Both the position numbers and the translations under genes were made by a program. Shown here one piece after another: positions 27,466 through 53,918 of a stretch of DNA of 64,000 bases. The notes under the pieces are model-generated. The model searched no databases. It was not told the DNA's origin and saw nothing but the letters and a program-made list of their open reading frames with translations. The DNA is from Methanobacteriota archaeon (GTDB taxonomy: Archaea; Thermoplasmatota; Poseidoniia; Poseidoniales; Thalassarchaeaceae), in NCBI GenBank assembly GCA_002718995.2, contig PBGL02000007.1, positions 2,306 through 66,305 of the forward strand. The letters are read 5' to 3'. Numbering within the stretch: the first letter of the stretch is position 1; each line of letters opens with the position of its first letter.

Positions 27466-27579
27466 CGCAACGGAAGGGGGAAAATTGCTGGCGGAGCTCA
27501 ATATATGCTCAGACCGTAGGTCTGAGTGAGAATATGGGGCGAACGTTCAAGTGGGTTACGAAAACCAAATCTGACTCTG

Positions 27580-30500
27580 ATGACGGTAGCCGCTGACCCA
27601 AAACCCTCTCAAAAAAAGTTCGGGGCAGCTTTTGCTGTATTGATTATGCTCGCTATGTCGCTATCGCCGTTGGCGATAATGGCAGAGGAGAAAGGGAGTC
27701 TTGAAGGAGAATCGACTAGGATACTGACTTCTGGAATTGAACCATGGACGGATGGCGGGCAGGCCTGGCCTCAGCCAGGTAGGACGCCGGACAGGGTGTC
27801 CATTCCACCCCAGCATGTGCATTCTTCGGATTCGGGTGCGGGTCTGCTCTCAATAGTTGACCCTGCGATAAACTGGGAGTTTGGTTCCGATCAACTGGGC
27901 ACTGATTCCCTCGGAACCCCAATTGCTGATTTCTCATCATCCTTGACCACTGTCCCTTCCTCTGAAGAAAGGTGCGGAGGGGACTCGCTCTACACCATCC
28001 TCGTACAAACCGACTCTGCATCGGGCGAGAGTTACATGAAAATTATCGAGGGAGAAGACTCAGATTTGGCATGGGAAGTGAGCCTTGGAACGACAGAGAT
28101 GGTCAAGGCCTCTCCCGTAATTGTGGATTTGGATGACGATGGGAAGCCCGAAGTAATAGTGGCTTATGACCAAAGTGGAACCCTGCACGTGGATGCATGG
28201 TCGCCAAGGCTATTCTGCTCGGTTACCGGATGGGACCCCAGTGCAGGCAGTTCGCAGCAGCCAGTCTGGACATGGGAAGAAGACGACTTGATGATAAGCG
28301 GAGAGCCGACAAGCACACTGAATGGCCTTGGTGGCCATCGCCCAACGACGCAGCCTTTGCTTGCAGACTTGGATCTTGATGGTGATGCCGAACTAGTTCT
28401 GGCGGCAATTGATGAGAATAGCGGGGACCCGGTTGTTGTCGCACTTAGCCTCCCCTCGAGCGGGACACCCGCTACACTGTGGGAGAAGACTCTGGACAAG
28501 GGGAGTCATCCATCGGATCCAGCATTTGCGCAGACGGATGAGAATACTGGCTATGTTGTTCTTACCACCACGGAACACACGAATGGCGGCATGTGGGTTT
28601 GGAGGCTTGATTCTACTTCGGGCGATTCAGGCTGGGATGGGCTTAGTTTGAGTAACGTAGACGGCGACTCCGACGTCCCTCATATCAGACTACCCGGCCC
28701 TGTAGTGGCGAATCTTGATTCTGATGAAGCCCCCGAGATTATTGTCACCATCCCAACTGATGCAGATGGGTCTAACACGATAGATGGTGCTGAATTCAGA
28801 GGGCTAGAAATAAGCACTGGTTCTGAGATATGGTCATTTCAGGCGGAGAATGGGTACGCTGATGCGCCCCCTCTTGTTATTGATACGGACGATGACGGTA
28901 CAGTGGATAGGGTCTGTTGGGTCACTTGGTGGCAGACGGCAACAGCTAGGCACGGGGTCACGGGTTGCCATGACGTCGATGGCTCTAGTCCGGAAGAAGC
29001 ATGGCACAGGGACCTTGAACAGAGCAGTGGTTCCCCTAATGACGAGATCGCAGTCTCCCCTCCCATCTGGATGGATATCGATGGTAGTGGCGAGCCTGAG
29101 CTTCTGGTGGCCTATGGGAGATCACTTTGGGCATTCGACGGGGCAGAGGGAACCGGGGCTGCCATCAATAGCGATTGGACCAATGAGTTGGAGTTGAGTC
29201 ATCGGACCTGGTCGTCGCCTGCAATGGCTGACATCGATGGCGATCGGACCCTTGACATAGTCATTGGAAGTACTGTCGTATCCCTTGAGCGATGTGACGT
29301 TAGGCCGCTTCTTGATGGCGGAGGCATAGAGTTGGATCCAACTGCCCCTAGCCCGGGAGAGGAAGTTACAGTTTCTGCATTTATCGAAAACTCAGGAACT
29401 GGGCCAATAGACTCCGAATTTGATGCTGTACTCTATGCTGATGGAATAGAGATTGGAAGGAGGACATTTGCTTCTCTGGATCCTGTAGAGCCAACTGGAT
29501 CTGGTTCCTTTGACACATTCAGTGTTGAATGGTCTGGATCACTTGGGGACCATGAATTCGTACTGGAGCTGGACGGTTTTGGGAACCTAACTCAGACTAG
29601 GACAGACAATGACATTACGAGCAAGACGGTCTCCATTGTCCCTACTTACAATGCTACATTTGAAATTCCCGCCGAGCCAATTAGAGTTTCTCCCGGGAGC
29701 AGCATTACTGCTAGTCCCACTGTAAGATCGACTGGCCGGCTCTCTGGGACATGGTCCCTCAGCGTAGATGGTTCCGAACTTCCAGACGGCTGGACTTGGT
29801 CTGATGCCACTCCGGGGGGGATTAGCGGTATTGAGATAGGGGTAGATCAGACATGGTCCCCTGACCTTACCATATCTGCTCCATCGGAAGCTTTGGGGTC
29901 GGACTCAGGATACCTTTCAATGACGCTAACTCTTGATGAGGACTCGAACATCTCTGTTTCCGCGAACCTTCCGATTGAGGCAAACAGGACCAGGGGGCTC
30001 TCACTTAGAGGCCCCGACGGAACGGCACAGAGCAGTGGCTACGGCCTACCAGGGCAAGATGCATCATCATGGTTCATGATAGAGAATCTAGGGAATGCCG
30101 AAGAAGGTCAGATTCTTCTCTCTTGGGACAGCACCGCTTGGGGAAATGATCTACGCCTATATGATATGGAGGGCAATGAAAGATCGGCTTTAGTTCTGGG
30201 CCCTGGAGAGGAGTTGGCCCTAATGGCAACCATGGATGTCCCTTCGGACTCCTCTGTTGGAGATTCAGTTAGCACCCCCTTGACAATGTGTGTAGGTACG
30301 GGAACGGAAGAAGAGACTTGTCAGACGATACAATTGACATTCCATTCTTCAAATGTAGTTTCAGGGAAGCACATAAGGAGTGTTCCTGCGAATGGCCTTG
30401 AATGGACGGTGATTTCCGAAATGACCCCTGATAGTGGGACTCTTACATGGTCTCTTTCTGATATGGGAATGGCGATGCCCGGATGGTCTTGGGCGGGGAC

Positions 30501-33213
30501 TGGTGACCTTTCAGTTTCAGGAGATTCAATAATTATGACAGGGGCCCCGGGAGGGACTTCCTCTGGTTCGATTATTGCGAGCCTCCCTGAAGACGCGCCT
30601 CCAGCATTCCACTATTTCTCAGATACGAGTCAAGAGTCATCAGAGCACCATCTAATAATCACACTAGAGGTTTTACAGATTTTCAGAGCTAATGTGACTG
30701 TGATCTCGCCCCAGGAGCAGCCATATTTGGTTGAAGTGGAAGAGGGTTCGCTGGTGGTTCTGAGACTTGAGAATCCTGGAAATGGCTTAGACGAGTACTC
30801 CCTCAGCTACTCAGTTATCTTGGACTCCAATATTTCCAGTGACCCAGGGGTCGTTGTGCAGTTCTCGATTGGTCAAGTCGAGCTTACCCCGGGGAGCCTG
30901 ACCACAATACCGGTAACAGTGACCCTCCCCGAAAGCACTCCCGCAGGAGTGCCACTTTGGATCGAGTTCACTGTATCTTCAATGGGCGACGAGGGAGTCT
31001 CGTCGTCTGACATGGTGGCCCTTGAGGCAAGGCAGGACCATAGGTGGGACATAGTCGCTAGCGTCGATTCAGTACCCATGTCCAATGGGAGTGTTTTCAT
31101 CATTGACCCCGGCACGACATTCTCACTAGATGTTGGTGCGAAGAACACGGGTAATCTGGCGGACCAAATTAGTCTTGATGTGATGACCACGCTAGATCTA
31201 GTTGATGGTGATACTTCCACTGGTTGGGAATCAACGGGCGATTCAGCAGAGGAAGTTTCTGTGAATCAGACAGTTTCACTTAGCATTGATTCAACGGTTG
31301 CTGCTGAGTCTTGGAGTGGGTCATCTATGACCGTCACGGTTTCTGCGTCGGCCCAGGGAGAGGAGGTTTCAACATTCTCATTCACTATCGAGGCGGGTCA
31401 CGTACCATCTTGGAACGCGATAGGTGACCAGGCGAATCTTGAGATAGATCCACTGGGCTCAGAGATAGAGCTCACAGTTGTACAGTCTGGGAATTCACCA
31501 ACTAGGGCCTATGCATCCATGTTCATTACCGGTGAATCCGGATGGACCATAGGCGAGCCTGATGAGTTGCCCATACTTTCCCCAGGAGAAACTTCGCCAC
31601 TCATCCTCAATATCACGCCCCCTCAGAACGCAGTATATGGGAAAGCGGTAGAACTTCACCTCCGTCTCAGAGAAGGTGACTCAAGCGTAGTTTCTGAGGT
31701 AGTTTTCCCACTTAGGGTAGCAGTAACTCATGATTTCACCCTTTCGGGAGAAGGGGACTGGCTAGTGAGTGATCTAGGAGGGTACCCCTTGGCTATGATC
31801 GAGAATCTCGGTAATGCTCCTAGCACGATTTCCTTACAGGTTCTGAGTCTACCACTAGGATGGTCAGTATCGGGTAGGACTGAGGCTATCCTCGGGGTCG
31901 GCGAGGTGTCCGGTGTACCTCTTGAGTTAATGCCAAGCGAAGATTGGGACGGTAGTGTCAAGACTATTCGGATATTGGCGGAAGATTCGGCTGGAAACCA
32001 AAGAGAAATCAATCTGGATACCCGGAAGGGAGAGTTTTCATGGGCAACGTCCCCGGTCATCATCTCCACCAGCGGAGATAGTGCACTTTTGGAAATTCAT
32101 GGAACTGACCAGTCATCCAGCGTCACAGATTCTGATTCAGGAGAATTAGAGTGGAATGACCTAGGAGGTTGGGCTTGGCCTGCCTCATCTAGTGGAGTTG
32201 GAGTTATCGCAGTTTCATCTGGAGCTAATCAAGGTAGTTTGGATTATAGATCAATAGTGGTAGATCCGGCTAGTAGAAGCGCTAGTTGCTCCATCTACGG
32301 AACTGTTGGAGAAATTGTCGCTACATGTTCGATAGGCAACGGGACTGATCCTTTCGAATACACGATTATGTTAATCGATGACCTAGGGAATATGATGCAG
32401 TCCGAATCGGGCTCGGTAGGGAGAAATTCCTCGGCATTGGTTAACCTGACCTCTGAGGAATGGGAGCCCACCCCTGGGAATAGGGAGGTATCTGTTAGAT
32501 TGCTAGATTCAAGAGGAATCCTAGTGTCGTCCTACTCGCAGATTTACGAAGTGCGCCGAACGGATTGGAATGTCGGATTGGTGCAGCTAGAATTGGAAGG
32601 GCAAGGTTCGAGCCAGAAAATTGAAATCTCTACCAGAAGAGACAATTACGAACTACTTCCCTCGGGAACGCGGTGCAGTGTTTCCATTGTAGCAGGGCAG
32701 TACTCATCCGTGCACATCGTAGACATGACATCAGCAAATGCCCTTGCGCCAAAGCCATCCATAGATAGGCCGGATGTTGACGATGATATCGAAATGATTG
32801 CCACGATAAGTTGCGATTTCCCCTGGGATCAGGATTCCGATCCTTCGGATGATGAGGCCAGAATAGTGCTATCTGGAGGCGATGACTTTGAAGGAGGAAT
32901 TAGTGATTCTAGTACTGCCTTGGCCGCAGCTGCCATAGTCATAGGGACTTCGATTGCACTGTCATGGATGGTCAGTAATTACAGAGAGGGACGGGAGATG
33001 ATGGAGAAGACGAGATTGGCGGTTGAGAAGAAGGCGAAGGAGAAGAAGGCCGCTGTGGAAGAGAGACTGGTTGAAAGCGAGGAAGAGGCTTCCCAACAAA
33101 CTTCAGATGAAGAAGAGCCTCAAGATGAAGCCTCCGAAGATTCAGATTCCTCTGAATTACGTCAAGATGACTCATTCGAAAGTCGTCTAAACAGACTAAT
33201 GGGTGAAAGGTAA
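27580..33213 (+). CDS. Giant surface protein with FG-GAP propeller, CARDB and tandem Ig-like (NEW3-like) domains
   Basis: Signal/TM helix; SPVIVDLDDDGKPEVIV, LADLDLDGDAELV and SSPAMADIDGD repeats; CARDB-like (PSPGEEVTVSAFIENSG...TDND); repeated ENLGNA / ENPGNG / KNTGNL; C-terminal TM helix and charged tail. Confidence 0.82.
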   Translation: MTVAADPKPSQKKFGAAFAVLIMLAMSLSPLAIMAEEKGSLEGESTRILTSGIEPWTDGGQAWPQPGRTPDRVSIPPQHVHSSDSGAGLLSIVDPAINWEFGSDQLGTDSLGTPIADFSSSLTTVPSSEERCGGDSLYTILVQTDSASGESYMKIIEGEDSDLAWEVSLGTTEMVKASPVIVDLDDDGKPEVIVAYDQSGTLHVDAWSPRLFCSVTGWDPSAGSSQQPVWTWEEDDLMISGEPTSTLNGLGGHRPTTQPLLADLDLDGDAELVLAAIDENSGDPVVVALSLPSSGTPATLWEKTLDKGSHPSDPAFAQTDENTGYVVLTTTEHTNGGMWVWRLDSTSGDSGWDGLSLSNVDGDSDVPHIRLPGPVVANLDSDEAPEIIVTIPTDADGSNTIDGAEFRGLEISTGSEIWSFQAENGYADAPPLVIDTDDDGTVDRVCWVTWWQTATARHGVTGCHDVDGSSPEEAWHRDLEQSSGSPNDEIAVSPPIWMDIDGSGEPELLVAYGRSLWAFDGAEGTGAAINSDWTNELELSHRTWSSPAMADIDGDRTLDIVIGSTVVSLERCDVRPLLDGGGIELDPTAPSPGEEVTVSAFIENSGTGPIDSEFDAVLYADGIEIGRRTFASLDPVEPTGSGSFDTFSVEWSGSLGDHEFVLELDGFGNLTQTRTDNDITSKTVSIVPTYNATFEIPAEPIRVSPGSSITASPTVRSTGRLSGTWSLSVDGSELPDGWTWSDATPGGISGIEIGVDQTWSPDLTISAPSEALGSDSGYLSMTLTLDEDSNISVSANLPIEANRTRGLSLRGPDGTAQSSGYGLPGQDASSWFMIENLGNAEEGQILLSWDSTAWGNDLRLYDMEGNERSALVLGPGEELALMATMDVPSDSSVGDSVSTPLTMCVGTGTEEETCQTIQLTFHSSNVVSGKHIRSVPANGLEWTVISEMTPDSGTLTWSLSDMGMAMPGWSWAGTGDLSVSGDSIIMTGAPGGTSSGSIIASLPEDAPPAFHYFSDTSQESSEHHLIITLEVLQIFRANVTVISPQEQPYLVEVEEGSLVVLRLENPGNGLDEYSLSYSVILDSNISSDPGVVVQFSIGQVELTPGSLTTIPVTVTLPESTPAGVPLWIEFTVSSMGDEGVSSSDMVALEARQDHRWDIVASVDSVPMSNGSVFIIDPGTTFSLDVGAKNTGNLADQISLDVMTTLDLVDGDTSTGWESTGDSAEEVSVNQTVSLSIDSTVAAESWSGSSMTVTVSASAQGEEVSTFSFTIEAGHVPSWNAIGDQANLEIDPLGSEIELTVVQSGNSPTRAYASMFITGESGWTIGEPDELPILSPGETSPLILNITPPQNAVYGKAVELHLRLREGDSSVVSEVVFPLRVAVTHDFTLSGEGDWLVSDLGGYPLAMIENLGNAPSTISLQVLSLPLGWSVSGRTEAILGVGEVSGVPLELMPSEDWDGSVKTIRILAEDSAGNQREINLDTRKGEFSWATSPVIISTSGDSALLEIHGTDQSSSVTDSDSGELEWNDLGGWAWPASSSGVGVIAVSSGANQGSLDYRSIVVDPASRSASCSIYGTVGEIVATCSIGNGTDPFEYTIMLIDDLGNMMQSESGSVGRNSSALVNLTSEEWEPTPGNREVSVRLLDSRGILVSSYSQIYEVRRTDWNVGLVQLELEGQGSSQKIEISTRRDNYELLPSGTRCSVSIVAGQYSSVHIVDMTSANALAPKPSIDRPDVDDDIEMIATISCDFPWDQDSDPSDDEARIVLSGGDDFEGGISDSSTALAAAAIVIGTSIALSWMVSNYREGREMMEKTRLAVEKKAKEKKAAVEERLVESEEEASQQTSDEEEPQDEASEDSDSSELRQDDSFESRLNRLMGER

Positions 33214-33854: not shown

Positions 33855-34766
33855 TCAGAATTCATTCCCGGTGAGCCTCTCATACATATCAGAATACAAA
33901 TTCGCAGTTCTAGAAATAATCTCTTCTGGCAGGGGCGGAATAGGCGGCTCCGGTGAACCAGACTCTCTGGCATTGTGTAGTTCACTATGGTGGCCCGTTC
34001 CCAGATAGTGCTCGCGGACAAATTCCTTCGATAGCGAAACTATCTCGCCTCCATCGTATGTCTCGGCATCCCACCAACGGTCTTCATCAAGAGTTCCGAA
34101 TGAGTCCACCAGAACTGGCTTCCTTCCAGCCCCCAATGCAAATTCTTTCTTGCCATCAACGTGGATTAGGCCCCTAGCAGAGGCTTCTCTCTCGATTATC
34201 TTGTCTATAGCTAGAACGCATTCCATAATTGAGTCGAATTCATCATCGGTCAAATTTGAAATCTGGAGAGCTTCTTCCCTGTCAAGAAGCCTGTCGAATT
34301 TCTCGAACTTCGTTGACACTTCCAAGTAGGGTCTAGGGAGCTTGACGCCCATTTCCAGGGAAAGGCCTGGTTCGAAACCAAACTCATCGGACCCGACCTC
34401 TCCGCGTTCATAGCGCCTCCACCCTGAACCTGCGAGATGATGTCTGCAAATTACTTCCAGAGGAACGAAAACATTCTCCATATCCCTTGGAATGGCGCCG
34501 GGCTCTTTTATCACCTCGAACTTTTTTGCTAGGCAACGATCTGGGGCATTCATCTCTATCAGGTGGGTTTCGCAAATTCCCTCTTCTTCGACCATTCTAA
34601 ACCAGTGACATGTAGTTCTGTTTAGACTCTCTCCCTTCCTTGGGACCAAGCTCGGAATAATTTGATCGAATACACTGATCTGATCTGTATACCTGAACTC
34701 AATTACTCCGGGGTCATCAGTACTCCAAACCTGCTTTACCTTTCCCTGATACATCATCTCTGCCAT
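33855..34766 (-). CDS. purC: Phosphoribosylaminoimidazole-succinocarboxamide (SAICAR) synthase
   Basis: YQGKVKQVW, TDQISVFD, KGESLN, PLEVICR, VDGKKEF, DSFGTLDEDRWW and SLSKEFVR. Confidence 0.93.
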   Translation of the reverse strand: MAEMMYQGKVKQVWSTDDPGVIEFRYTDQISVFDQIIPSLVPRKGESLNRTTCHWFRMVEEEGICETHLIEMNAPDRCLAKKFEVIKEPGAIPRDMENVFVPLEVICRHHLAGSGWRRYERGEVGSDEFGFEPGLSLEMGVKLPRPYLEVSTKFEKFDRLLDREEALQISNLTDDEFDSIMECVLAIDKIIEREASARGLIHVDGKKEFALGAGRKPVLVDSFGTLDEDRWWDAETYDGGEIVSLSKEFVREHYLGTGHHSELHNARESGSPEPPIPPLPEEIISRTANLYSDMYERLTGNEF

Positions 34767-34812
34767 AGCACGTTTCGGAAGGGGCACGACGATGAACATT
34801 ACTGAGGGGATG

Positions 34813-35790
34813 TCAGTCCTTTCTGAGCACTTCTCTCACTATGAATACTGAAAGTACGAATATTGCAACTATCCTCAAATCGAATTCGGATTCCTCCTCC
34901 TGTGGCTTCTGGGAGTCGAATAATTCCATGGCAGAATCTATCTCAGGAGATTCTGAAGAAGAAAGAATCACAGTTCCCCCAACATGGTACGGAGATGACG
35001 AAATGAAGTCTCCGGGAATCTGATCTTGCTTCACCGAAGACATTGCGATGTCACAAAGATCAGACTCGGACAAGTCACTTAGGGAATTGTCGAACACTCC
35101 GCTATCGTGAGTGAAAAGCGTTAATTCGACCTCATAATGACTGGCTATGCTATTCATAATCAATTCTGCCATATCAACCTCGAAACCGACTAACTCTCCG
35201 TTATTTCCATACCTAGTCATTGGTGACTCTTGGTCCAACATACAGACTCCCAAATCCGAATCCTCGTACAGTATTCTATGAAGCGTACCGCCTTCGGTGG
35301 GTGTAGGCCATGCATCCTCATAAGACTCGAAATCTGAAAAATCCAACTGTGGCCTGTCAGCGAACCAAAGTTGGTGTGTCGAAATTGCTGTTCCCCTCTG
35401 ATGAATATCCGCCAGCGCGGAGTTGACTGCGTACCTCAGTTCGTCGTTCCCCAATTCCTGGGAATTATCCGATCTAATAATCGCGACGAAATAATCAGAA
35501 ATATCAAACATCTCATCTACGGCAATTGTGGGCCATTGAGCGATTACCTCGGAATCGGCCATTAAATGATGCGGGCCAATTAAGAAGTCAACTTCCCCGT
35601 CCCTTAGTGATCTAATCGCAAATTGCACATTCTCAAACTCCATTTCCTCTAAGTCTGAATTCTGAGCTATGAAATGTGAGGACCCTTCTTCCGAAATAGT
35701 GCCAATTGAATAGATTGCTTCACCTGAAGCGACAAGCCAAGAAGAAGAGAGCAAAATCGGGACGATTAGCACAGCGGCAATCCCCCTCAT
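34813..35790 (-). CDS. Family-3 (polar amino acid) solute-binding protein, circularly permuted, C-terminally anchored
   Basis: The C-half motifs (AIRSLRDGEVDFLI, ELRYAVNSALADI...GT...WF) come before the N-half motifs (TLHRIL, P...NGELVGFEVDMAELI, CDIAMS, SSPY). Signal peptide and C-terminal TM helix are present. Confidence 0.75.
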   Translation of the reverse strand: MRGIAAVLIVPILLSSSWLVASGEAIYSIGTISEEGSSHFIAQNSDLEEMEFENVQFAIRSLRDGEVDFLIGPHHLMADSEVIAQWPTIAVDEMFDISDYFVAIIRSDNSQELGNDELRYAVNSALADIHQRGTAISTHQLWFADRPQLDFSDFESYEDAWPTPTEGGTLHRILYEDSDLGVCMLDQESPMTRYGNNGELVGFEVDMAELIMNSIASHYEVELTLFTHDSGVFDNSLSDLSESDLCDIAMSSVKQDQIPGDFISSSPYHVGGTVILSSSESPEIDSAMELFDSQKPQEEESEFDLRIVAIFVLSVFIVREVLRKD

Positions 35791-35920
35791 GAACGAATCA
35801 AGGAGTGTTTTGACTTAGAATTGGCGGTCCGCCTAGACTATATCCAAGGAAGAATGCCAGACATTGGGGCTCACCATGCTTGAAGGGAATTCTCGGCTCT
35901 CCAAGCCAAGGAGGGGGAGT

Positions 35921-38059
35921 ATGTCGGCTCGGACAGTTTGCGTTGCCATAGTGATTCTTCTACTGACTTCTGTAAACCCTAGTCAAGCTACTGAATTTGA
36001 GAGTAGTTGGGAAATTGTAGAAAGCGGGACATCTGAAGATTTGCTGACCGCTGCTGAATTTGAGGGGGAGGTTTGGGCGTTTGGAACTGCGGGCGTCATG
36101 CTACGCAGTGGTGATAACGGGGCTTCATGGACGGTTTACGAATCGCCGACCACAAGTGATATTCTGAACTCGGCCTCGGGTTTTGGTTCCTTGCTAATCT
36201 CCGGAGATTCTGGATTGGTACTCCTCAGGGAAAGTGAGAGCGATTCGTGGATCGATATTTCACTCCCAGAAGAGGATTCCGTAAATGGGATCTCGTTGAC
36301 TGGCAGCGATACAGCCGTGGCAGTAGGAAATCATGGGACAATATGGAATCTGGATGGTGGCGTCTGGACGGAGACCGCTCTATCCATAGAAAGTGACCTT
36401 CTTGATGTGTCATTCCTGGATGAGGAACTAGGAATAATAGTCGGTTCCGAGGGGACGATTCTCTTTTCCGAAGATGGAGGAGAAAGTTGGGAGTATCGTG
36501 AGTCGCCCGAGGGAGCTGCCGGTGCAGTTATTGTGTCAGTAGAGTTCTACAGCCCCACTCGAATTTATGCCATTACAGATGATGGGAGGGTCCTTATCTC
36601 GATGAGCAATGTAGTTACTGGGACTGATGTCGGATACATATGGAATCTTGTTGAGTTCGAGAGACACTACCCTCCAGGAACAAATGAGTACATCCTAGGG
36701 CCAGAGAAACTAGACGTACAATTGACCTCTATCGAAGTGGTTACAACGTCTAAGTTCCTGATGACGGGAGATGGGGGTTATATCTCCATGAGCGTCAATG
36801 GTGGGACGATAGTTTCGCAGCAGATTAACCCCCTTGGAAATAACAGTAACTTCAACGATATTGTGATGGTGACCGGATTCACGGGCGTGGCTGTCGGAAA
36901 CGAGGGTAAAATCCTGTGGACAGAAAATGCTGGTGCAGACGATCAAGCGGGATTCGTAGTTCCTGAATACGGGAACTTCGGAGTATTTGTTGATGAGACA
37001 AAGGCCATGTTCCTATCCGGATTTATCGCGACGCTGAAGATAGTAGCATTTGGAATTGTTCTGGGCTTTCTTCTGGGAGTTACCCTGGCAATGTGCAAAA
37101 CATCACCAATTTCACTAAGGAACGTCGTAGAGCGATATGAACCGAAATATGTCAGAATCATTGGAATACCCCTACTGGCTGGCGGACTGCTGCAAATCTA
37201 CTCCGCCATTCCGGGAGCGAGTGGTCTTGGACTTCAGGGTATTGAGTACATCTTCCTCCCAGTCGGGGCACCTGTTTCTTTTGCTAAGATTCTCTTAGGG
37301 ATAGCGCTAATATTCATTGGCACACTTTTCATTAGCAACGACAATAAATTTTCGAAAATCAATATTGGCCCATTTACATTGAATCCTTGGAGAGTAAGGC
37401 CACTGAATGCCATAGCGACAGTTTACACTGACTTCTTCCGTAACACCCCCTTAATTGTGCAGTTCCTATTCATACACTTTGGACTTCGGCTAGGGGCACT
37501 AATTCAAGGTCCCGGATTGGAGATTTTTAGCTTCGAAAATTTGGAAAATAATCATAATTTTATGACAGACATTATTGCCACATATGATCATTCAGAGGGC
37601 AATTATGGAACACTGATCGGCGGTGTTCTATACGACTCTGCTTTCATCAGTGCGATATGTGCTCTGGGATTCAATTCGGGTGCCTACCAATGTGAAACTA
37701 TCAGGGGCGCGATACAGGCGATCCCATCTGCCCAGATGGAAGCTGGCAGGAGTATTGGCCTAACCTATCTTCAAACCATGCGAAGAGTGATCATGCCACA
37801 AGCAATCAGAATCTGCATCCCTCCAATGGGCAATGAGATGGTCAATCTTGTACTAAACTCATCTCTTGCTATGATTATAGGATATGCTGAGTTGACTAGG
37901 CAGGGGAAGTTGATAGTCGCTAGTACGTTCCAATATGCATATGCTTGGGGGATGGTTCTGATTTCTTACTTCGTGGTGACGTGGACTCTTGCCCTGATAC
38001 TCAGATGGCTAGAGGAAAAAACTAGAATTCCAGGATTGGGGATAACTGGGGGTGATTGA
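35921..38059 (+). CDS. Fusion of a YCF48/BNR beta-propeller and a HisM/GlnP-family amino acid ABC permease
   Basis: Signal peptide; Asp-box repeats RSGDNGASW, FSEDGGESW and MSVNGG; permease motifs YTDFFRNTPLIVQ, AYQCETIRGAIQAIPSAQMEAGRSIGL and NSSL. SD GGAGGGGGAG before ATG 35921. Confidence 0.88.
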   Translation: MSARTVCVAIVILLLTSVNPSQATEFESSWEIVESGTSEDLLTAAEFEGEVWAFGTAGVMLRSGDNGASWTVYESPTTSDILNSASGFGSLLISGDSGLVLLRESESDSWIDISLPEEDSVNGISLTGSDTAVAVGNHGTIWNLDGGVWTETALSIESDLLDVSFLDEELGIIVGSEGTILFSEDGGESWEYRESPEGAAGAVIVSVEFYSPTRIYAITDDGRVLISMSNVVTGTDVGYIWNLVEFERHYPPGTNEYILGPEKLDVQLTSIEVVTTSKFLMTGDGGYISMSVNGGTIVSQQINPLGNNSNFNDIVMVTGFTGVAVGNEGKILWTENAGADDQAGFVVPEYGNFGVFVDETKAMFLSGFIATLKIVAFGIVLGFLLGVTLAMCKTSPISLRNVVERYEPKYVRIIGIPLLAGGLLQIYSAIPGASGLGLQGIEYIFLPVGAPVSFAKILLGIALIFIGTLFISNDNKFSKINIGPFTLNPWRVRPLNAIATVYTDFFRNTPLIVQFLFIHFGLRLGALIQGPGLEIFSFENLENNHNFMTDIIATYDHSEGNYGTLIGGVLYDSAFISAICALGFNSGAYQCETIRGAIQAIPSAQMEAGRSIGLTYLQTMRRVIMPQAIRICIPPMGNEMVNLVLNSSLAMIIGYAELTRQGKLIVASTFQYAYAWGMVLISYFVVTWTLALILRWLEEKTRIPGLGITGGD

Positions 38060-40218
<2,159 letters not shown>

Positions 40219-44399: not shown

Positions 44400-44891
44400 G
44401 TGAGTGATAGCATGACATGGAGGCGGTTGGAAATAGGCGACTCGAACGAAGGTGTGGGAGGTGAGTCTGATGTCGGAGGAACTTCCCTAGGGCTCGACGT
44501 TACTGCTTTCGAAGCGCATTCGCAATTCATCTCAGACCTACCTCACATGTCAGAGGTTTCGGAAGCTCATGGAGAATTCTTGGGGCAAGCTGGGAACGTA
44601 CCTGAATCAGCTAGGATGGCGAATAGCGATATCACAACTATGGGCGAGATGGTAGCTGATCTGGGGGGTTCAATAGAAGGTCATTTCATGGAGATTCCGA
44701 TGCCTTCGGCGGATAGAAGGGGAGTTGTCCTCGAAGTCATGGAGGGAGAGAGTGGCACCATAGCCAGAATTATTGCCCCCAGTGGCTTTGGAGGTGTATT
44801 GAGGACATTTAGATTACCCGCTGGCTCCTTCATCTCTGGTGCGTCGTGGAATGGCCATAACCTGGGGCTATCTCTAGAGGATCATTCCTGA
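44400..44891 (+). CDS. Hypothetical protein with a weak Hsp20/alpha-crystallin-like C-terminus
   Basis: C-terminal RTFRLPAG...ASWNGHNLGLSL resembles the R-x-x-LP...A-x-x-x-NG-x-L motif. Confidence 0.45.
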   Translation: MSDSMTWRRLEIGDSNEGVGGESDVGGTSLGLDVTAFEAHSQFISDLPHMSEVSEAHGEFLGQAGNVPESARMANSDITTMGEMVADLGGSIEGHFMEIPMPSADRRGVVLEVMEGESGTIARIIAPSGFGGVLRTFRLPAGSFISGASWNGHNLGLSLEDHS

Positions 44892-47800
44892 GGAACTATC
44901 GCTGACTCCCTAGATGGGACTTCCTCGAGTTGGTCGATCTCCTGTAGAACGGCACTAAGTGCCATCTGAGCACCTTCCCTGTGGGGCTCTCCGAGAACGT
45001 GGCTTGAGTATCTGGCCTCTTCGAAAATTCTATCCAGGGACAGGAGGGCCTGTTCGCTTATCGGAAGTGCGTTTCTTATTGCCAATTCGAACTCCCTGAC
45101 TGTCTCGAAATCCCTCCTCAGGAAACCCCTGCTCATCAAAATCTGGCATAGTCCCTCGTAGCAGTTGAATATCGCCTCTCTGACCTCATCGCCAGCCGCT
45201 AGGAGTTCTGCTGTGTAGCTGAACACCCCGGCCAACTCGTCGATGGCTGCTTGCTTCCTCCTCCTGAGTAAAATCGCTCCGACTGCGGCTAACCCGATTA
45301 TCACGAGCATGGCCAAAGCGGCCATGGCTGGACCGACGAGAGATGCTCCCTGCTCAGGCTGGTACTCCACTTCGACCACAGCGAACTGTGAGAGTCGGGC
45401 GGCGTCAATGGGGTCGATGATATCTGAGTCCGAACTGAACTCTACCGAAAGGTCTCCCCAGAAGTCCCTGTCCCAAAGTGGGTGGCCCTCATGGAATGAC
45501 TCGAAGTTGTACGTGAATATACCATCCTGATTGGTGACTCCCACAACTGTAAAGTGAGTACTAGTCGCATTTACCAGTCTAGCTGTAATTGAGACGCCCT
45601 CGATGACCTCGACCCTGTCAGTGGCAGTGACATTGACCCTTCCCGAAAGGGAACTTTGGCCTATCTCCAGATACAACGAGTCGGGGATGAACTCGAAGTT
45701 TACAGGTACTTTGATTACCACCTCGAACCCGATCTCGCCACCGTTCAGGAACCTGGAGGAGTCGGGGTCAACCACTATTGACATGCTCGCCGTACCAGGT
45801 GGCATTGTTGAAATCGCATTCGACTCGACCAGGAATTGCCCCGTAGTCTCGTCCCATGAAATCTTGGTATTCGGCCTTAGGGAGTCCCCCCAGTAGAGCG
45901 ATAGGTCCATCTCCTCCATTGTATTTCCTTCCCCGCCGATTTCAATAATCCTACCAAGGACCCTTATTGGCCTATTTCCGTCACTTCTGACGACTTCGTC
46001 CTCCAGGAATAGTATCTCTATCTGAATGTCTGCCCTTGCATAGACGGTGGCATTGATGGAATTCGAGAGGTATAGTTGCTCCCCGGCAAAAACCAATGAA
46101 ACATCATGCGAACCCCTTGATATCAGATAGCCAAGCTCGTGACTAATGCTGAATGTACCATCTATGCTGGTTGTTATGGTAGAAACTTCTTCTCCGTCCA
46201 GTAGGAAGGATAGCTCCCTCCCTTCCAGGCCGGGATTGCCTGTGGAGTCTGCATCGAATAACCTCCCCGTGAGATTCCATGAACCGCCTCTTGTCACCAC
46301 GTTGTTCTCAACTTGCAGAGTCATTCCCGTGTGATACGCGATTGTTAGATTTGCCTCTACTGAACCTTCCCGGTGATAACCCTGATTCGGAGCTACTACA
46401 GTTAGCGTGTGCTGGCCCACATCCAAGAACTCTGAGACTACCCACGAATGGGACCAGAGTCCATCCTCGTCAGTTGTAGTTGTACCAATCAGGATTCCAT
46501 CTATGAAAATCTGCAGTGAGTGGTTCTCTAGCCACCCATCCGGAAGGTTGTCCTTGACAGATCCACTGAGCTGAAGCACATCTCCAACTGCTACTGGGGA
46601 TGGCTGTTCCACACTAACCTCGGCAGGCCCGAAAACAGTGAATATGGTGGTCGAATTTGAACCTATGACAAACTCCTCGCCGCCGAACTCTATTCTGACA
46701 TTCCTTGGCCCGAGAGGCATGTCCGGAGGTACTGGGAAGAATAGGCTAAACGTGCCGTTTTCAGTGACTGACAGTGAAGTTAGGAATTGATCATTCATGT
46801 AAACGTCGAGATTCCTTCCTGGAAGCACCCTTCCTGCTCCATCGGTTAGCATTCCCTCGATGAGCAATAGCTCGTTTCTATCGACCTCTCCCGGAGGCGT
46901 AGTGAGGACGACCTGAGAGGTCTGGGTCGCGTTGAATTCGTGTGTTAATGTGGAAGGGAGGTAGTACTCGGGATTCAACGAGTCCCCCTGGCCCATTGGA
47001 TCTACCCATGTGAATCCACCTAGGAAATCGACAGTGAAGGTGTGGACCCCATAATCGGTATCTAGTGGCAAATCGTAAGTTATGCTCCATACCCCGGTGG
47101 AAGAGTTGGAAATGGAAGTATAGACAGGCCCCACATCAATTCCGTCAATAGAGAGGTGTACGACTCCCCCTTGGTCTTCGCCATTCTCGACAAGCGGCAA
47201 TCCATGCTCATCGAGTAGCGTGCCGGTGAATGTGACTGTCTCACCAGCGATAGCGGAGCCAGTGACCGAAATCACATCTAGAACCGAGGGGGCGAGTATT
47301 ACCACCCTAGTCCACGTCTCGTCACCCAGTAGTCCGGTTGTACCATTGATACCCGCGAATGTAGCTGTAATGGTCATTGGCCCGGGAGCCCTGTTGGGAT
47401 CAGTTGTGATCACAGTTGTAAGAATGCCCCCTTCATCGGTAAGGCCCGACCAAGATTGTACGCCGTCTATTGAAACATCGACTTGAGCCCCGGGTACAAA
47501 CTGTCCGGAGTTGTCGATAAGGGACATGTTTAGTGTTATGTTGTCCCCTCTTACCGTCCTCTCATCGGGATCTAAGTCCGTAGGGGATATTATTGAGAGC
47601 ATTGAGAAACCCCTGCTATCAAACGTGCCATCCTCTGAGCTGGGGCCGTAGTAGTTGACGGAAGGGGTGTATGATGCAGTGATATTGTGTGTACCGCGGG
47701 GGAAAGAGAGGTCAAGGAATATCCTAGCTGACCATGATCCGTTTGCGTCCACGGTCCCGCCTGTTACTGAGAATGAGTTTGTATCCCCGTCGATCGCGAA

Positions 47801-50800
47801 GTTGAGTGTAGGATTTAGGGCGTTACCGGCTCTGTCGACTATTCCACTGCCATTGCTTGAAGTGAGTGTTCCGCTGATATCCAGGAACTCACCAGCAGCG
47901 GGATTTGACGTAATTGGATCAAATGTTATGTTGGTAGGGGATCTGACTGTGATTGTGTTGATCACCGTAGAGGAAGGGTGAAGGGTATCTGAGCCGTTGG
48001 AGCCGTTGAAAAAGAGGAAAATTGGCATTAGCCCCAGAGGGTGAGAATGGGGGACAGAGAATGTGAAATTGACTAAACCCTGGCCATTAGTAGGTTGTTC
48101 CGGTATCAGCCAGGTCTCATGGAATAATGCCGAAACTGACATGTCGGAGAGTTGCCTATCCCCATCACTTGATTCGACCAGCCTTGCTCCGAATGTGATA
48201 GACGTCCCTCTGTCCACTATGGTGTTTAGGATGGGATTCCTGTCAGTAATTTGGGTAACGCCACGAACTAGGATAGTTTCATTCCCAGTTCCCGTCAGAT
48301 AGAAGGGAGTACTGCCATTTTCCACGCTCACAACTACCGTCTTGAGACCATTAGTTACGCCGTCCCCAAGTGGATCGGTGGGGACTGATATTGAAAACGA
48401 GCCATTTGCTGCAGTAACGTGTCCTGTGATTAGAGTCTCACTGGGGTCATTCAAGAAAAATACCTCCACCGTCATAGGCCCCGATACCGAGCGATTCTCA
48501 TCCACGCCATCTAGGACCTGGCCCTGTAGTTGGAAGAACTGCCCGGCAGTTACTTCTGGCAATGGCGAGTTGTCGATTCTTATGCTACTCGCAACCTGCA
48601 CCGTCAGGTTGACCACGCTCTCGTTCCCAATCCACCTTCCAGCATTTGGTGTAGTCAAACTATCAGTTAGGTCGTCAGGGGCGTGGAGTCTGACATCATA
48701 GTAACCAGGGGGGGCATCTGCGGGGATTGTCGGGGTGAACCTCGCGACACCATCCGACCCAGTGACAGTGGAATTGAGAACCTGCTGCAGAGGGCCGCCC
48801 CAATCGAAGTACAGATCGACAGTAGTATTCTGCAGTCTGTTATTGCTCTCGACATCGGTGACTGTGGCATTCGAGATCAAAGTCTGGCCCGCGATTACGA
48901 TTGACTGCAGTGGTTCTGCTTCCACCACATACTCGGTCTGGACCCCTGCTTGGAGGACCACTGCCCCGGGAACCAAGTAGTAGGCCCCGCCTGTGGGAGG
49001 GCTCTTCTCAAAGTCAAGAATCAGCCTGAGGTCGTACACACCGGCTCCAACGCCAGCGGGCATCTGGAAGGTGATGTTGTACTCTCCTGTCGTATTATCT
49101 ATCCACTGCTCCCCGAGCCTGTAAGTTACTGGCGGGGCGTCTAGGCCATCGGGAGTAGGGGGTTGGTCGGATGGGACTTCCATGTTGATAATGATCGAGG
49201 AGTTATTGCCCAGTATTGTGCTGTTTAGGTTAATGTCTCTCGCAAAGCCGGAAATCCATGAGGACTGGCCGCGGGGAGTCCATTCCGAGCCAAGCGTGAA
49301 TGAGACGTCAGCTCTTCCTTGAACTCTTACGGTATCTAAAACGCTGTTAGGAAGAAGCCAAGTTGACCCACTGAAGTTCAGTTGCCAGGGGTAGTCTCCG
49401 GCCTCCATATCTATGGTTGGCCTGAACGAAACCATCACACGGGGAAGCTCTGGATCAGACTGGTTCCATGCCAACTCACCGTTGAAGTCCAGTGTGTAGT
49501 CTCCAACGAAACTCGCAACAGAATTACCAGTGTGGTCAGACAGCGTAACTTCGACCTCAGAGTCTGATCCGACAGGGGCTGGATTCAGTATGTAACTGAA
49601 ATTTACATAGCTCTTTACGCCATGCTCATCGATTACTACTGATTCGTCTTTCGCGAACAAGCCATCAGCTTCGAACTGATATCTGATTTCCACAAGACCG
49701 GCAGGAACTGGAACCTCTGACGCCGAGAATGACCAGTTGACTGCGAATTGGCCCAAGGCCCCCGTCCAGTCTGAGTCATTGAGGTACCATGAGTTCAGTG
49801 TGGTGAAGGGACCGTTGGCTGCGGATCGGCGCATCTGCAATGTTAGGGTGCCATTGAGTGCCTCTGGGATGATTGACCTGCTGAGTACGGTGCCGTTCAG
49901 ATATATCGGCTGGTCGATTTCTAGAATGGTATTGTTCAAACCCTGGCCCTCCAGAGTCACTGTGAGATTAGGTGCTGGAGTAAGGTTGAGATTGAGTCCT
50001 ACTGACTTGGGGCGCAGGTGGTAGAGGGGTGAGCTTGCATTGTTGAGGTCCTCTTCGTGCCAACCTAAGAAATTCAGAGTAGCGGAAATTAGCCCCTCCT
50101 GCTCCGATTCATCTATTGGGACCGAGAATTCGTAATATCCGCCTGCACCAACACTGGAAATCAGACTAACTGGACCATCGGCTGAGGTAGTATAGTTTAG
50201 CACCACTTGCAGGCTATCTAACTGTGTAATATCGTTGTAGGGCTCACTTGATAGAGAAATTTCCCCCACGAGTGTCGTGTTGACTCCGATGCCTATCTTT
50301 GGCTCGTCCGCGGGCTCAGGCTCTGTTATTGACATGGCCACATCGTCAGTGATATTCAACCTCCATGGGAAAGTAATGCCCTGTGAGCCGACATATCCAT
50401 TCTGGTACGTACGAAGTACAAGGGCGCCATAGCCCGGATTAATCACCTCCTGAGGCTGTCCTGTGATATTGAAAGAGCCGTTCTCATCAGTCACAGCGGA
50501 TCCCACATAATGCTCTTCCAATGCTGCAGAACCGGGTATATTCTCGGTCTGATTTGACTTCACCAGATACATGTCAATTGTAATATTCCCAACAGAAGTC
50601 TGATTTTCAGTGAACCTCAATACCCCATCGAGGGAGAGATTCCCTGAAGACAGATCCCTTTCAAACCAAATCGGACCCCGATTCTCATCTACGACTTCGA
50701 CGGTAGAGAGGGAAGGGCACGCCTCAAATGGGATCCAACCGAGATCGGCATTACCCAAGTTGGAGTTAGTCTGGAGATGGACCTCGACCCATGTCGTGAA

Positions 50801-53800
50801 GTCTTTTCCATACACCTCGAAAGACGTGCCTGTCCACTTTCCTCCGGAGAAGCCAGTAACCTTACGAGCAGGTATTCCAGCGGAACGTAACATTACAGCA
50901 AAAAGCGTACTGAACTGATCGCAATCGCCCTCGAATGAGTTATTCAAGATCCAGTAGGATAGGTCGTCCTCATCATCTAGAACCCCCACTTCTGTCCCAT
51001 TGTGATTCCTCAGGAAAGTAGTAGTGGAATTTCCATTAATGATAAAGTCCTGAATTGCCGACACTCTATCCCAAGCCGAGAAGGCGCCTGACTCGTTGAT
51101 TACTGTCGTTGTTATGGAATTGACGAAGTTGGCTGCGTTCCCCTTTGCCAGATATGAGCTAGGAAGGTCGGTCGCATAGGTACTATTGGCGAATTCAGTG
51201 GTATTTTCCCTAATAGCCTGTGTAATCAAAACTTGTGGAGCGGTGACGAATAGGGTATCTATGGTGGCACCGTCCACTATTGCGTCCCTGGTGAAGTTCG
51301 AGAAATTGAGTCCTGCATTCGCATCGGTCCATCCTGTGTAATTGACAGCATTGTGAGGGGCTATGATTTCCTCACCGGGGAAAATCAGAGCTCCGGACTC
51401 GAGGGATATCTCCCAACCGAGTACCTCGGAGCCGTCCCAGAACTGTTGGTCGGCAACGCCCTGCGTCGTAGAGAATCCGGGGAACATCTGAGTGTTTCCA
51501 ACGAGGCTGGTGTTGACACCCCAAGAAATCCCCGTGTAGAAGTCGTATGTATGCCACCTCCAGTAATGAGTGATATTGGGATCGACCCCAGCAGATGTGT
51601 TCGTGGCCTCGAAGAACATCATGTTGGCATCTATATCGTCTGCGGGATCCCAAGGATTTCCATCGGCATTTAGGCAATTAATGTCCCAAAATTCGGAAGT
51701 ACACTCCTGGCCATCAGGTATTCCTCCTCCGTCTGTATCCGGATCCCTCCAGTCTGTGCCGGTGGAATTCTCGATTGTGTCCGGTATTCCGTCCCCGTCG
51801 GTATCTACTGGGTTAAGATCGTCATTAGGGTTATTCTGGGGATTTGTCCCATCTAGGTACTCCTGGAAGTCGGTCACCCCCCCATTGTCCGTGTCGGTTA
51901 CATTCCACAATGTGAAGTAAGTATCAGTAGTGGCGTTGCCCCCTAAGTCACCGAAGGCGACAAGGCAAACCGTTGTATTCTCAAAGTAGTTGTTTAGCCC
52001 GTCCCCATCTGAGTCCAGTAGGTTATCGCAGGGGTTGCTTGGATCGGTGAGGTTCAGGATCTCGTCTAAATCATTAACTCCATCGCCGTCGGTATCTGAC
52101 ATATTCCAGTCAGATAAGAAACCAAAACTTCCTGTTGATTCCTCCCAGTCAGCCAGGCCATCCCCATCAGTATCGAAATAGTCATCGTCGCATATCGGAT
52201 CATTGGACAACCCGAGCGATTGATCCCAGCACCAAGAGAAATTTACGAATGTCACGGATGTAGCGTCAGGAGGCTTGTCCGTGTCTATGCCCCTCAATGC
52301 ATCTCCATTGATGGATGTGAATCTAAAACCGGTTAGACTGCCATTAGTTGATGAGACATAGAATCCCATTGGCTCCCCATTCTGCCTCCAATCCTCGGGG
52401 GTCTGGTCGAGCGCGGAGGTATCGTTCAACGTAAGTACCATATTAGTGGCATCGAAGTCTATGATAGTCAAATTCAGCGTTTGCAGGGAGGTGCATGGAT
52501 CGGTGCCATGAGATGGGTCGAGTTCAGAACCGTCACTAATTCCCCCTCCGTCTGTATCCGCAACATTCCACAGGGTACATGTCATATTTTCTTCCCAATT
52601 TGGTATTCCGTCATCATCGAAGTCGCCCGAATCCTCAATCCTAGTTGGATCAGTCTCATTTTCATCGACGATGCCGTTTCCATTCAGATCCTCCTCGCCG
52701 TCATCGAACTGGTCATCATCTGTATTGTTGTCCCTTGGATCGCTTGCTAAAGGAGGGTCACCATACTGCGCATTGACCTCGACGCCGTCGCTAATTCCGT
52801 CTCCATCGGTATCGGAGGAAGTCGGGTCAGTAAGCAAGACGAGTGCCTCATATGAGTCATTTAGGCCATCGCCATCAGTATCATTCAGTTGGGGGTCTGT
52901 GGAGGTTATTCCGTCTACCTCGGCGGTGAAAATAAGACAACCGCCCGGACCCAGCAGAAGTACCGGGTTGCAAGGCGATTCTGTGGCCGTCATGCTCAAA
53001 GGACCAGGGCGGAAATATTGGGTGGGAGGAGTGGTAGAACCATTCCTGGTCCCCCAAGCAGGGTTGACGAATTCCTTCAGGTTGACCAGCCCATCGCCAT
53101 CTGGATCCCCGAATGCTCCGTCTTGATTGGTGCGGGAGGTTGGATCTAGGCCATTTGCTACCTCCCAGCCGTCTGGCATACCATCTCCATCGGTGTCCCA
53201 ACCATTGGGATCCTCATCGATGGCTCCATCGCCATCATCGTCATCACTGGTGCAGTTTGAGTCCCCGTCCCCGTCTGCATCGAAATTATCGACCAGTCCA
53301 TCCTTGTCATCATCGAATGAATTGAAGCAGATATTACCCCAGGGATCCTCATCGGCTCCGTCTGAACCCAATCCCTGAATGAGCTGCATGGCGCTCTCCT
53401 CGTCCCAATTACTTACTGGGACGGTACCATTCCACCAAACGCCATTGTCCAGCTCATTTGGAGTATTTGTGGAGTCCCAATTCGCTGGAATTCCATACAT
53501 GTACTCATTCAGATTAGAAAGAGAGTCGCCATCTGGATCGCCGGTTGACCCATTATCGCCTGTTGCGGAAAGGGGATTAAGTCCGTATTGCCATTCCCAG
53601 CCGTCAGGGAGGCCATCATTGTCAGTGTCCCAGTCCTGGGGCTGAGTATTGATGTAGAACTCAAGACCATAGGAAAGGCCGTCGCCGTCCTGGTCGGTGG
53701 ATGCCAATGCCTCCCATGAAGCAAACTCCAATGCTGAGTATGAAGAAAGGAGCATCAAGATAGAGAAAATAATGGCTGACCGGCTCTTACTGAGCCCGTC

Positions 53801-53836: not shown

Positions 53837-53918
53837 GCTACGCAACCCCTTGCTCTTGGGCGCAAAGTAGGGCACTTAAGAGGAATGGAGCGTCGTTCGG
53901 ACAATGACTCGCTACTAA

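Follow-up and report, generated by a model that had tools for sequence, protein, structure and literature searches.

The gene at positions 34813–35790 (minus strand) of the window, by which we mean the whole 64,000-nucleotide stretch of Poseidoniales DNA analysed here (contig PBGL02000007.1), encodes a family-3 (cluster F, type II) binding protein that is truly circularly permuted: the part that canonically ends the chain comes first and the part that canonically begins it comes last. The residues with which canonical members are expected to hold an alpha-amino acid are replaced throughout its subfamily. We propose, with confidence a little above even, that this binder is a retained and retooled auxiliary receptor, a flytrap with non-canonical specificity that has the same permease as its partner. 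It is encoded by a single open reading frame (ORF) of 325 amino acids with an ATG start, whose parts are as follows.

34813..35790, minus strand: whole gene, circularly permuted family-3 (SBP_bac_3) binding protein, 325 amino acids plus stop (ORF list, translation, Pfam match)
35722..35790, minus strand: residues 1–23, putative hydrophobic export signal MRGIAAVLIVPILLSSSWLVASG with no lipobox Cys (read from the sequence)
35350..35712, minus strand: residues 27–147, counterpart of the canonical C-terminal half (matches to 4zv1 118–232 and 5t0w 134–246)
35287..35349, minus strand: residues 148–168, junction of the old C-terminus to the old N-terminus, an acidic stretch followed by WPTPTEGG (alignment conservation)
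34915..35286, minus strand: residues 169–292, counterpart of the canonical N-terminal half (matches to 4zv1 10–119 and 5t0w 14–133)
34882..34914, minus strand: residues 293–303, acidic disordered spacer (predicted local distance difference test score, pLDDT, below 50 at 294–303)
34816..34881, minus strand: residues 304–325, C-terminal transmembrane anchor with a basic/acidic tail FDLRIVAIFVLSVFIVREVLRKD (predicted helix 305–324)

Residues 27–147 comprise the second part of lobe 2, a hinge strand and the C-terminal helices of lobe 1, and residues 169–292 comprise the N-terminal part of lobe 1, a hinge strand and the first strand and helix of lobe 2. The anchor, a hydrophobic helix followed by RKD, is conserved across the binder subfamily.

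Several models agree on the reversed order. Pfam SBP_bac_3 (PF00497) matches the protein in two stretches with 36.9 bits (gathering cut-off 26.4; E 3.6e-9), and profile positions 3–97 fall on binder residues 182–284, placing the N-half last. Positions 41–147 of the NCBIfam cystine binder model are matched by residues 178–290, and the last ~35–100 positions of the NCBIfam GlnH and ArtI models by residues 114–147, 45–144 and 43–144. A single-sequence search against PDB chain 4zv1 (AncQR, 233 residues) aligns query residues 29–144 with chain residues 124–232, and query residues 195–283 with 27–108. A family profile built from 84 sequences and run against PDB sequences finds 453 of them at E≤1e-3, the best being again 4zv1 (E 1.6e-52), on which profile positions 174–289 fall on chain residues 10–119 and positions 32–141 on 118–232; on 5t0w, positions 165–289 fall on 14–133 and positions 32–141 on 134–246. 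Because the two matches abut on the solved chains, this is a clean circular permutation of a complete fold, in which nothing has been lost or duplicated. The alignments place a single cut in a lobe-2 loop, between the helix after the first lobe-2 strand and the 'vGVq.GT' strand, which corresponds on 4zv1 to a point approximately between residues 118 and 119. The colinear succession of N-half and C-half that marks family 3 is thus absent; the halves are reversed and their matches abut. The original prediction, made from the sequence alone, held that elements of the C-half precede those of the N-half; all of the motifs that it quoted are present in the translation in that order, and the Pfam, NCBIfam, PDB and 84-sequence profile matches bear the claim out.

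The predicted structure is consistent with this arrangement. An AlphaFold run with eight close homologues only gave a pLDDT of 34.6 and was discarded; the rerun with the 84-sequence alignment gave the model used here (pLDDT 85.4, predicted template-modelling score 0.78), in which beta and alpha elements alternate and residues 305–324 form a C-terminal helix, with low pLDDT at residues 1–22 in the export-signal region. Foldseek against the PDB returned type II binding-protein folds only, at low template-modelling scores (0.21–0.36), as is expected when a sequential aligner meets a permuted and pseudo-symmetric fold. In a wide search with VIA-align, model residues 169–275 superpose on residues 1–99 of TmArgBP domain 1 (Z 9.4, root-mean-square deviation, rmsd, 2.6) and residues 25–98 on residues 116–187 of TmArgBP domain 2 (Z 8.4, rmsd 2.1), so that the lobes of this confident model match the two isolated domains in permuted order. 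A bilobed alpha/beta flytrap is therefore predicted, all of the strong fold matches being type II. A search of the ESM Atlas returned generic SBP_bac_3 clusters only.

The swapped topology is not peculiar to the window. A profile search finds 341 proteins at E≤1e-5, and more than 100 of the 120 listed are proteins of ~320 amino acids with 99% query coverage and 23–27% identity; these Poseidoniia relatives, which we call type A, have the same cut, junction and C-terminal anchor as the window binder and bear generic database names only. A search of 1.84 billion representatives gave 21 matches at E≤1e-3.

To compare ligand sites we aligned 45 canonical type A sequences with the 31 members of the window binder's subfamily (8 close homologues and 23 further members). 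Invariant in all 45 canonical sequences are the G, V, Q, G and T of the GTT loop, D78, D183, Y186, F189, E190, W231, T250, K251, T252, R255 and R263, and at these positions the window binder and the 23 further members have other residues. We take R255 to bind the alpha-carboxylate and D78 the alpha-ammonium group, following work on GlnH and HisJ. The canonical loop GVQSGTTSD becomes GTISEEGSS in the window binder, D78 becomes P73, W231 becomes F233 and R263 becomes S266; the aromatic loop D..YPPFE reads LDQESPMT, with L185, E188, M191 and T192 in place of D183, Y186, F189 and E190. The T250/K251/T252/R255 motif corresponds to a segment (247–262) that lacks Arg and in which D256 is invariant among the close homologues. 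The residue aligned with R255 is I258 (D256 in other registers), the register around the TxxR loop being uncertain by approximately 2 residues, and there is no Arg in 247–262 in any register. Among the 23 further members the R255 column contains no Arg, and the D78 column contains Ser or Thr in 21, D in one and a gap in one. The alignment thus finds the Arg/Asp/Thr clamp replaced in 31 of 31 subfamily sequences, and only in this subfamily. The canonical Arg and Asp had been reported as missing in the original prediction, and the comparison with 45 relatives of the same topology, in which both are invariant, upholds that observation.

The subfamily has conserved residues of its own at these loops, namely C183 (31/31), M191 (30/31), Ser or Thr at 192 (31/31), Y268 (31/31), D186 (27/31, with N in the other four) and Q187 (28/31). 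C246 is invariant in a five-sequence alignment (A4), and a C183–C246 disulfide is possible, as judged from these conserved cysteines. Because the subfamily conserves its own set of cleft-loop residues, a changed site fits the data better than a decayed one, and the acidic replacements (the SEEG loop and D256) argue against a bound carboxylate. This bears on an explanation that we consider doubtful, namely that the protein is an ordinary alpha-amino-acid receptor that uses substituted residues, such as Lys or Ser/Thr, in place of Arg and Asp. Its partners are a PAAT-type permease and ATPase, and among its conserved neighbours are glutamate dehydrogenase and the aspartate-using SAICAR synthetase; hydroxyl residues are retained at 31, 192 and 254, and a Lys stands close to the TxxR position in 17 of 23 sister and 3 of 8 close sequences, all of which would suit such a receptor. 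However, none of the 31 sequences keeps the GTT loop or either charged clamp residue, the SEEG loop and the invariant D256 at the Arg region make the carboxylate site acidic, and the canonical residues are kept in 45/45 relatives of the same topology, so that the topology itself does not force their loss.

The gene is genuine and conserved. Seven of its eight close homologues (75–98% identity) are 319–325 amino acids long and one is a 222-residue fragment, and the subfamily profile finds 30 proteins at E≤1e-10. Near-full-length relatives are present at 15 loci in metagenome-assembled genomes (MAGs) recorded as Poseidoniales, Euryarchaeota or Thermoplasmatota; 19 loci were returned, and the remaining four are bacterial partial matches. 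The order in the MAGs is HD, glutamate dehydrogenase, ATPase, permease, binder (divergent to the permease) and purC, and the genes next to the binder in the window are the following.

35864..38059, plus strand: divergent partner, a 731-amino-acid fusion of a beta-propeller (~residues 43–380) and a PAAT-type ABC permease (Pfam PSII_BNR, BPD_transp_1)
38060..38836, plus strand: ABC ATPase of the same transporter (Pfam ABC_tran, 7.5e-39)
33855–34799, minus strand, as the binder: SAICAR synthetase (purC), 13 bp from the binder stop codon at 34813–34815

The permease lies divergently upstream and SAICAR synthetase downstream in 15/15 loci; the ATPase follows the permease in 14/15, the fifteenth locus ending inside the permease, and glutamate dehydrogenase is present in 13/15, the missing ones lying beyond the locus ends. 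The ratio of nonsynonymous to synonymous substitution rates (dN/dS) of the binder against six relatives is 0.045–0.076, and 0.049 in the least saturated pair (dS 0.86); values for the permease are comparable (0.045–0.057). Contigs assembled from runs of three studies span the junction (X5 and X9 cover 34700–35900, X7 covers 34700–35833) with 1–2 differences from the window, zero indels and zero joints, X5 and X9 being near-identical to each other and possibly including the source sample. An assembly artefact or pseudogene is excluded by these independent MAG loci and contigs, the intact frames of equal length and a dN/dS of ~0.05; the idea that this might be a misassembled or truncated gene found nowhere else is contradicted by the same data. 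The 13 bp between the binder stop codon and the purC start, in an order kept at 15/15 loci, make co-transcription possible.

How the permutation arose can be approached from the wider family, in which one conserved junction, '..DDT..TATAYPTPTEG(S/G)TL..', occurs with three different cut points. In addition to type A, there are type B proteins (P0015, P0020, P0024 and P0027 among our matches), which begin after beta1-alpha1 and finish with beta1-alpha1, and type C proteins (P0017, P0019, P0026 and P0028), which begin at the last canonical helix. P0017 and P0028 both finish in a hydrophobic tail, that of P0028 being without basic residues. In the 84-sequence alignment the junction positions P162 and G168 are invariant and almost invariant, respectively. 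WPTPTEGG had been described in the original prediction as a linker; since a colinear domain, that of P0018, has 'PVPTEGSTL' ahead of its beta1, the motif is probably the old N-terminal segment that preceded beta1 rather than a new linker.

An origin by duplication and trimming is plausible given the shared junction, the several cuts and the existence of tandems. P0030 (695 amino acids, from a metagenome) consists of two almost identical type A domains arranged head to tail around a Cys- and acid-rich spacer, and the bacterial tandem binders P0023 and P0029 align straight through the junction. The middle of P0030 reads as a colinear domain in canonical order, Pfam assigning residues 169–468 to positions 1–131. 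A two-domain ancestor with this junction, which the original prediction of a trimmed tandem had suggested as a check, was not found in the representative and near-length homologue searches, no search having been aimed at longer proteins; what was found are the bacterial tandems (P0023, P0029), the permuted tandem P0030 and large proteins that contain a colinear or a permuted domain (P0018, P0015). The trimmed-tandem origin is accordingly plausible in outline, with its predicted ancestor missing from those searches. A related explanation, that the halves complement one another between chains in a domain-swapped dimer, or are half-domains left from a truncated tandem, is highly improbable: the duplication route does pass through tandems and a permuted tandem exists, but the two stretches abut exactly on the solved chains with no part missing, the monomer model is confident, and more than 100 listed relatives of ~320 amino acids keep the single-chain arrangement.

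In a tree of the junction region (112 columns) the archaeal permuted forms stand apart from the bacterial tandems (98/94), the window binder's subfamily forms one clade (99/95) and canonical type A another (98/92), which joins type B and two type C rows on an open fork (93/88); these columns do not resolve how often each cut arose, including whether type A arose once. In the Poseidoniia a large family combines the swapped topology with intact canonical residues, so the rearrangement of the chain and the loss of the clamp are distinct events. The glutamate-receptor S1 model (PF10613) matches P0012, P0037 and P0120 over residues ~187–273, up to profile position 110–112 of 115, and its match in canonical type A proteins ends approximately 25 residues before the C-terminal anchor; this places the type A cut near the end of the S1 model, about one helix beyond it. 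In this respect the cut may be comparable to the channel insertion of the receptors. The 90%-identity cluster of P0154, a 326-amino-acid binder, also lists members of 303–314 amino acids named SAICAR synthetase, the product of the neighbouring gene; the mixing looks like an artefact of clustering or naming, and cluster sizes for the binder family are for that reason unreliable.

The partner permease starts 73 bp from the binder and is divergent from it (PSII_BNR 2.2e-14, BPD_transp_1 1.7e-18). Its propeller is Ycf48/BNR-like, of ~340 residues, and occupies the N-terminal place where GlnPQ-type permeases carry binding domains; it evolves faster than the membrane domain (60–62% as against 73–82% identity, loci L014–L019). 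A complex prediction of the binder ectodomain with the propeller scored 0.00, which is no answer and counts neither for nor against docking. Canonical type A binders occur in 11 of 43 genomes of family f4, which belongs to the other order of the class, and in 4/4 loci inspected there the binder is divergent to a homologous propeller-permease (31–34% identity over almost the full length) and ATPase (66–68%), so that the module of type A binder, propeller-permease and ATPase is old. No full-length canonical type A binder was found in the 201 Poseidoniales genomes sampled. The propeller-permease is present in 67 of these, all in family f1 (genus g1 12/12 plus the window's own genome, g5 16/16, g6 9/9, g8 14/14, g12 11/12 and g13 4/4), and in 0 of 99 genomes of family f3. 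In G137 (C3:12427–14550) the match to it contains a single in-frame TGA. In 15/15 genomes with the binder, its gene neighbours that of the permease and is transcribed away from it.

Around the observed permutation, conservation, selection, synteny, residue replacement and patchy presence we would build the following account. The binder would be a working Venus-flytrap receptor of the polar-amino-acid class, exposed at the surface and anchored to the membrane by its C-terminus, its chain running from the middle of lobe 2 to the old C-terminus, through the junction to the old N-terminus, and on to the end of its lobe-2 part before the anchor. Its permuted topology would have been inherited from an ancestral Poseidoniia receptor that served the neighbouring propeller-permease/ATPase importer. 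In this lineage of marine group II that type A receptor may have become redundant, and would have disappeared from the majority of species and persisted in a few with its pocket rebuilt, the alpha-amino-acid clamp (Arg, Asp, Ser/Thr loop and aromatic lid) having been exchanged for other pocket residues that the subfamily conserves. The retooled receptor would then have the same permease as docking partner and close around a non-canonical solute.

A number of observations weigh against this account. The full-length binder is present in only 15 of the 67 permease-bearing genomes (g1 4/13, g6 8/9, g12 3/12). We inspected the loci of five of the 52 genomes with the permease and without the binder; in four the permease start lies 94–233 bp from purC and a hidden Markov model of the family is blank in ORFs of at least 150 amino acids, and the fifth (L047) runs off the contig end. 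With permease and purC as neighbours and no binder between them, the transporter evidently works without it. Four such genomes (81–97% complete, one of them a single contig) hold just two family-3 proteins each, a type B module and an AapJ-like protein of ~404–432 amino acids (a 227-amino-acid open frame in G161). MAG completeness of 79–97% limits claims of absence. Between genera the binder is the fastest-evolving gene of the locus, with 29–36% identity as compared with 75–85% for the ATPase and 84–87% for glutamate dehydrogenase, and several pocket positions vary between sub-clades of the subfamily; both could reflect relaxed constraint. The structure is a prediction, superposed by sequential aligners only. 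Contigs from one RNA library reach only 35405–35703 and possibly represent DNA carry-over; four further RNA runs have small word shares with the gene.

The same patchiness gives weight to the main rival, that the protein is an accessory or regulatory flytrap module that does not depend on a ligand and that gates, stabilises or modulates the propeller-permease, which we regard as somewhat unlikely. The original prediction had raised an accessory role as a possibility only, and it now draws weight from the dispensability of the gene in 52 of 67 permease-bearing genomes. The replacement of the canonical clamp in 31/31 sequences and the fast divergence between genera are also as such a module would have them, and flytrap chains of MltF and of EvgS/BvgS are among the sequence or fold matches. 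The murein transglycosylase MltF and the BvgS and EvgS sensors contain family-3 modules that have no part in transport. On the other hand, the binder is under strong purifying selection and conserves an alternative set of cleft-loop residues, and a Pfam scan finds no fused catalytic or signalling domain, all of which count against such a module.

If the older receptor was dispensable, another protein may have taken its place. In the window's own genome, outside the window (G000:C8, ~43.8–47.0 kb; locus L001), a 1049-amino-acid open frame encodes a lipobox lipoprotein in which a type B family-3 module with the canonical residues precedes two LivJ-like domains; the frame itself lies ahead of a Liv-type permease. 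It is odd to find a family-3 module beside a HAAT transporter. The type B protein occurs in 61 genomes, all within the 67 that have the propeller-permease, a distribution that follows clades and does not represent independent events. Since the module co-occurs with propeller-permeases that have no binder, it might serve that permease in trans. A broader sequence of events may therefore be offered as a tentative possibility: in the Poseidoniia one ancestral junction would have been recut at at least three places (in the middle of lobe 2, behind beta1-alpha1 and ahead of the last helix), with permuted tandems still surviving; in marine group IIb the transporter-linked receptor would have become redundant, possibly as the SBP-LivJ-LivJ lipoprotein module (SBP, solute-binding protein) serves the propeller-permease in trans; and the old receptor would have been lost or rebuilt for a non-amino-acid solute of marine dissolved organic matter.

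Canonical family-3 binders (GlnH 1ggg/1wdn, LAO/HisJ 1lst/1hsl, ArtJ 2pvu, AncQR 4zv1 and AncCDT-1 5t0w) are homologous to the window binder over the whole fold, and like it (in the model) are bilobed, type II and found beside a PAAT-type permease and ABC ATPase. They differ in chain order, in having a free or lipid-anchored N-terminus instead of a C-terminal transmembrane anchor, and in their Arg, Asp, GTT and aromatic ligand residues, which are replaced in the window binder. A further close comparison is with the P0012-like Poseidoniia binders of the same topology, ~320 amino acids long, which have the same cut, junction and anchor and a homologous propeller-permease and ATPase adjacent; these are 23–25% identical to the window binder, have the canonical ligand residues in 45/45, and are named in databases 'transporter substrate-binding domain-containing protein' or 'ABC-type amino acid transport substrate-binding protein'. 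The family-3 domains of GlnPQ (Lactococcus lactis SBD1-SBD2, 6h30/4la9) likewise sit at the membrane beside a PAAT permease, and their tandem is an intermediate of the kind required for permutation by duplication; they are colinear and fused to the permease, whereas the window binder is a separate gene on the opposite strand, permuted and self-anchored, and its permease carries a propeller.

The best structural match of the model is PfVFT1 of Plasmodium falciparum (PDB 5jkq; Z 15.6, rmsd 2.6 over 156 residues), with which sequence and profile searches detect no similarity. Model residues 110–273 are colinear with chain residues 26–197 and the canonical C-terminal helices precede beta1 in both, so that neither chain interrupts lobe 1, which runs from the C-terminal helices into the N-half. 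The chain order of PfVFT1, a eukaryotic surface protein with no transporter, resembles the type C cut and not that of the window binder. Among natural permutants, TpMglB-2 (Tp0684) of Treponema pallidum is a circularly permuted glucose-binding protein described as 'Type Ic / Cluster Bc' (PMC4990184). It is membrane-tethered and still a receptor, and its authors tie the permutation to the tethering (PMC4990184). It is bacterial, of the type I (cluster B, sugar) fold, and has its ligand residues intact (PMC4990184). The window binder, which is homologous to family 3 (type II) and not to MglB-type proteins by its sequence matches, is only analogous to it. Engineered circular permutants of binding proteins are common in sensor work. 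A search of open-access papers returned no natural family-3 permutant and no description of this Poseidoniia family, and an archaeal permuted family with several cuts is apparently undescribed.

These findings indicate that the fold of polar-amino-acid binders can be circularly permuted at several sites in nature, and such natural permutants are of use in studies of fold rearrangement and in sensor engineering, which builds its permutants by hand. The permutation itself is moderately surprising; in the window binder it comes together with an erased ligand site, a permease fused to a propeller, and a gene that some genomes have and others lack. Dissolved organic matter is consumed by the abundant and uncultured archaea of marine group II, and the receptors of their transporters decide what is taken up. 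A receptor that lacks the canonical clamp and is still under strong selection beside a transporter points to an unrecognised substrate or role, and this subfamily is probably mislabelled where automatic annotation calls its members 'amino acid ABC transporter substrate-binding protein'. The canonical and retooled versions, together with species that have the gene and species that do not, amount to a natural experiment and a good experimental system.

Two giant ORFs elsewhere in the window both probably encode surface proteins.

27526–33213, plus strand: giant ORF of 1895 amino acids with FG-GAP-like and NPCBM-associated domains
44882–53875, minus strand: giant ORF of 2997 amino acids with a transglutaminase core, Ig-like group 3 domains and TSP3 repeats

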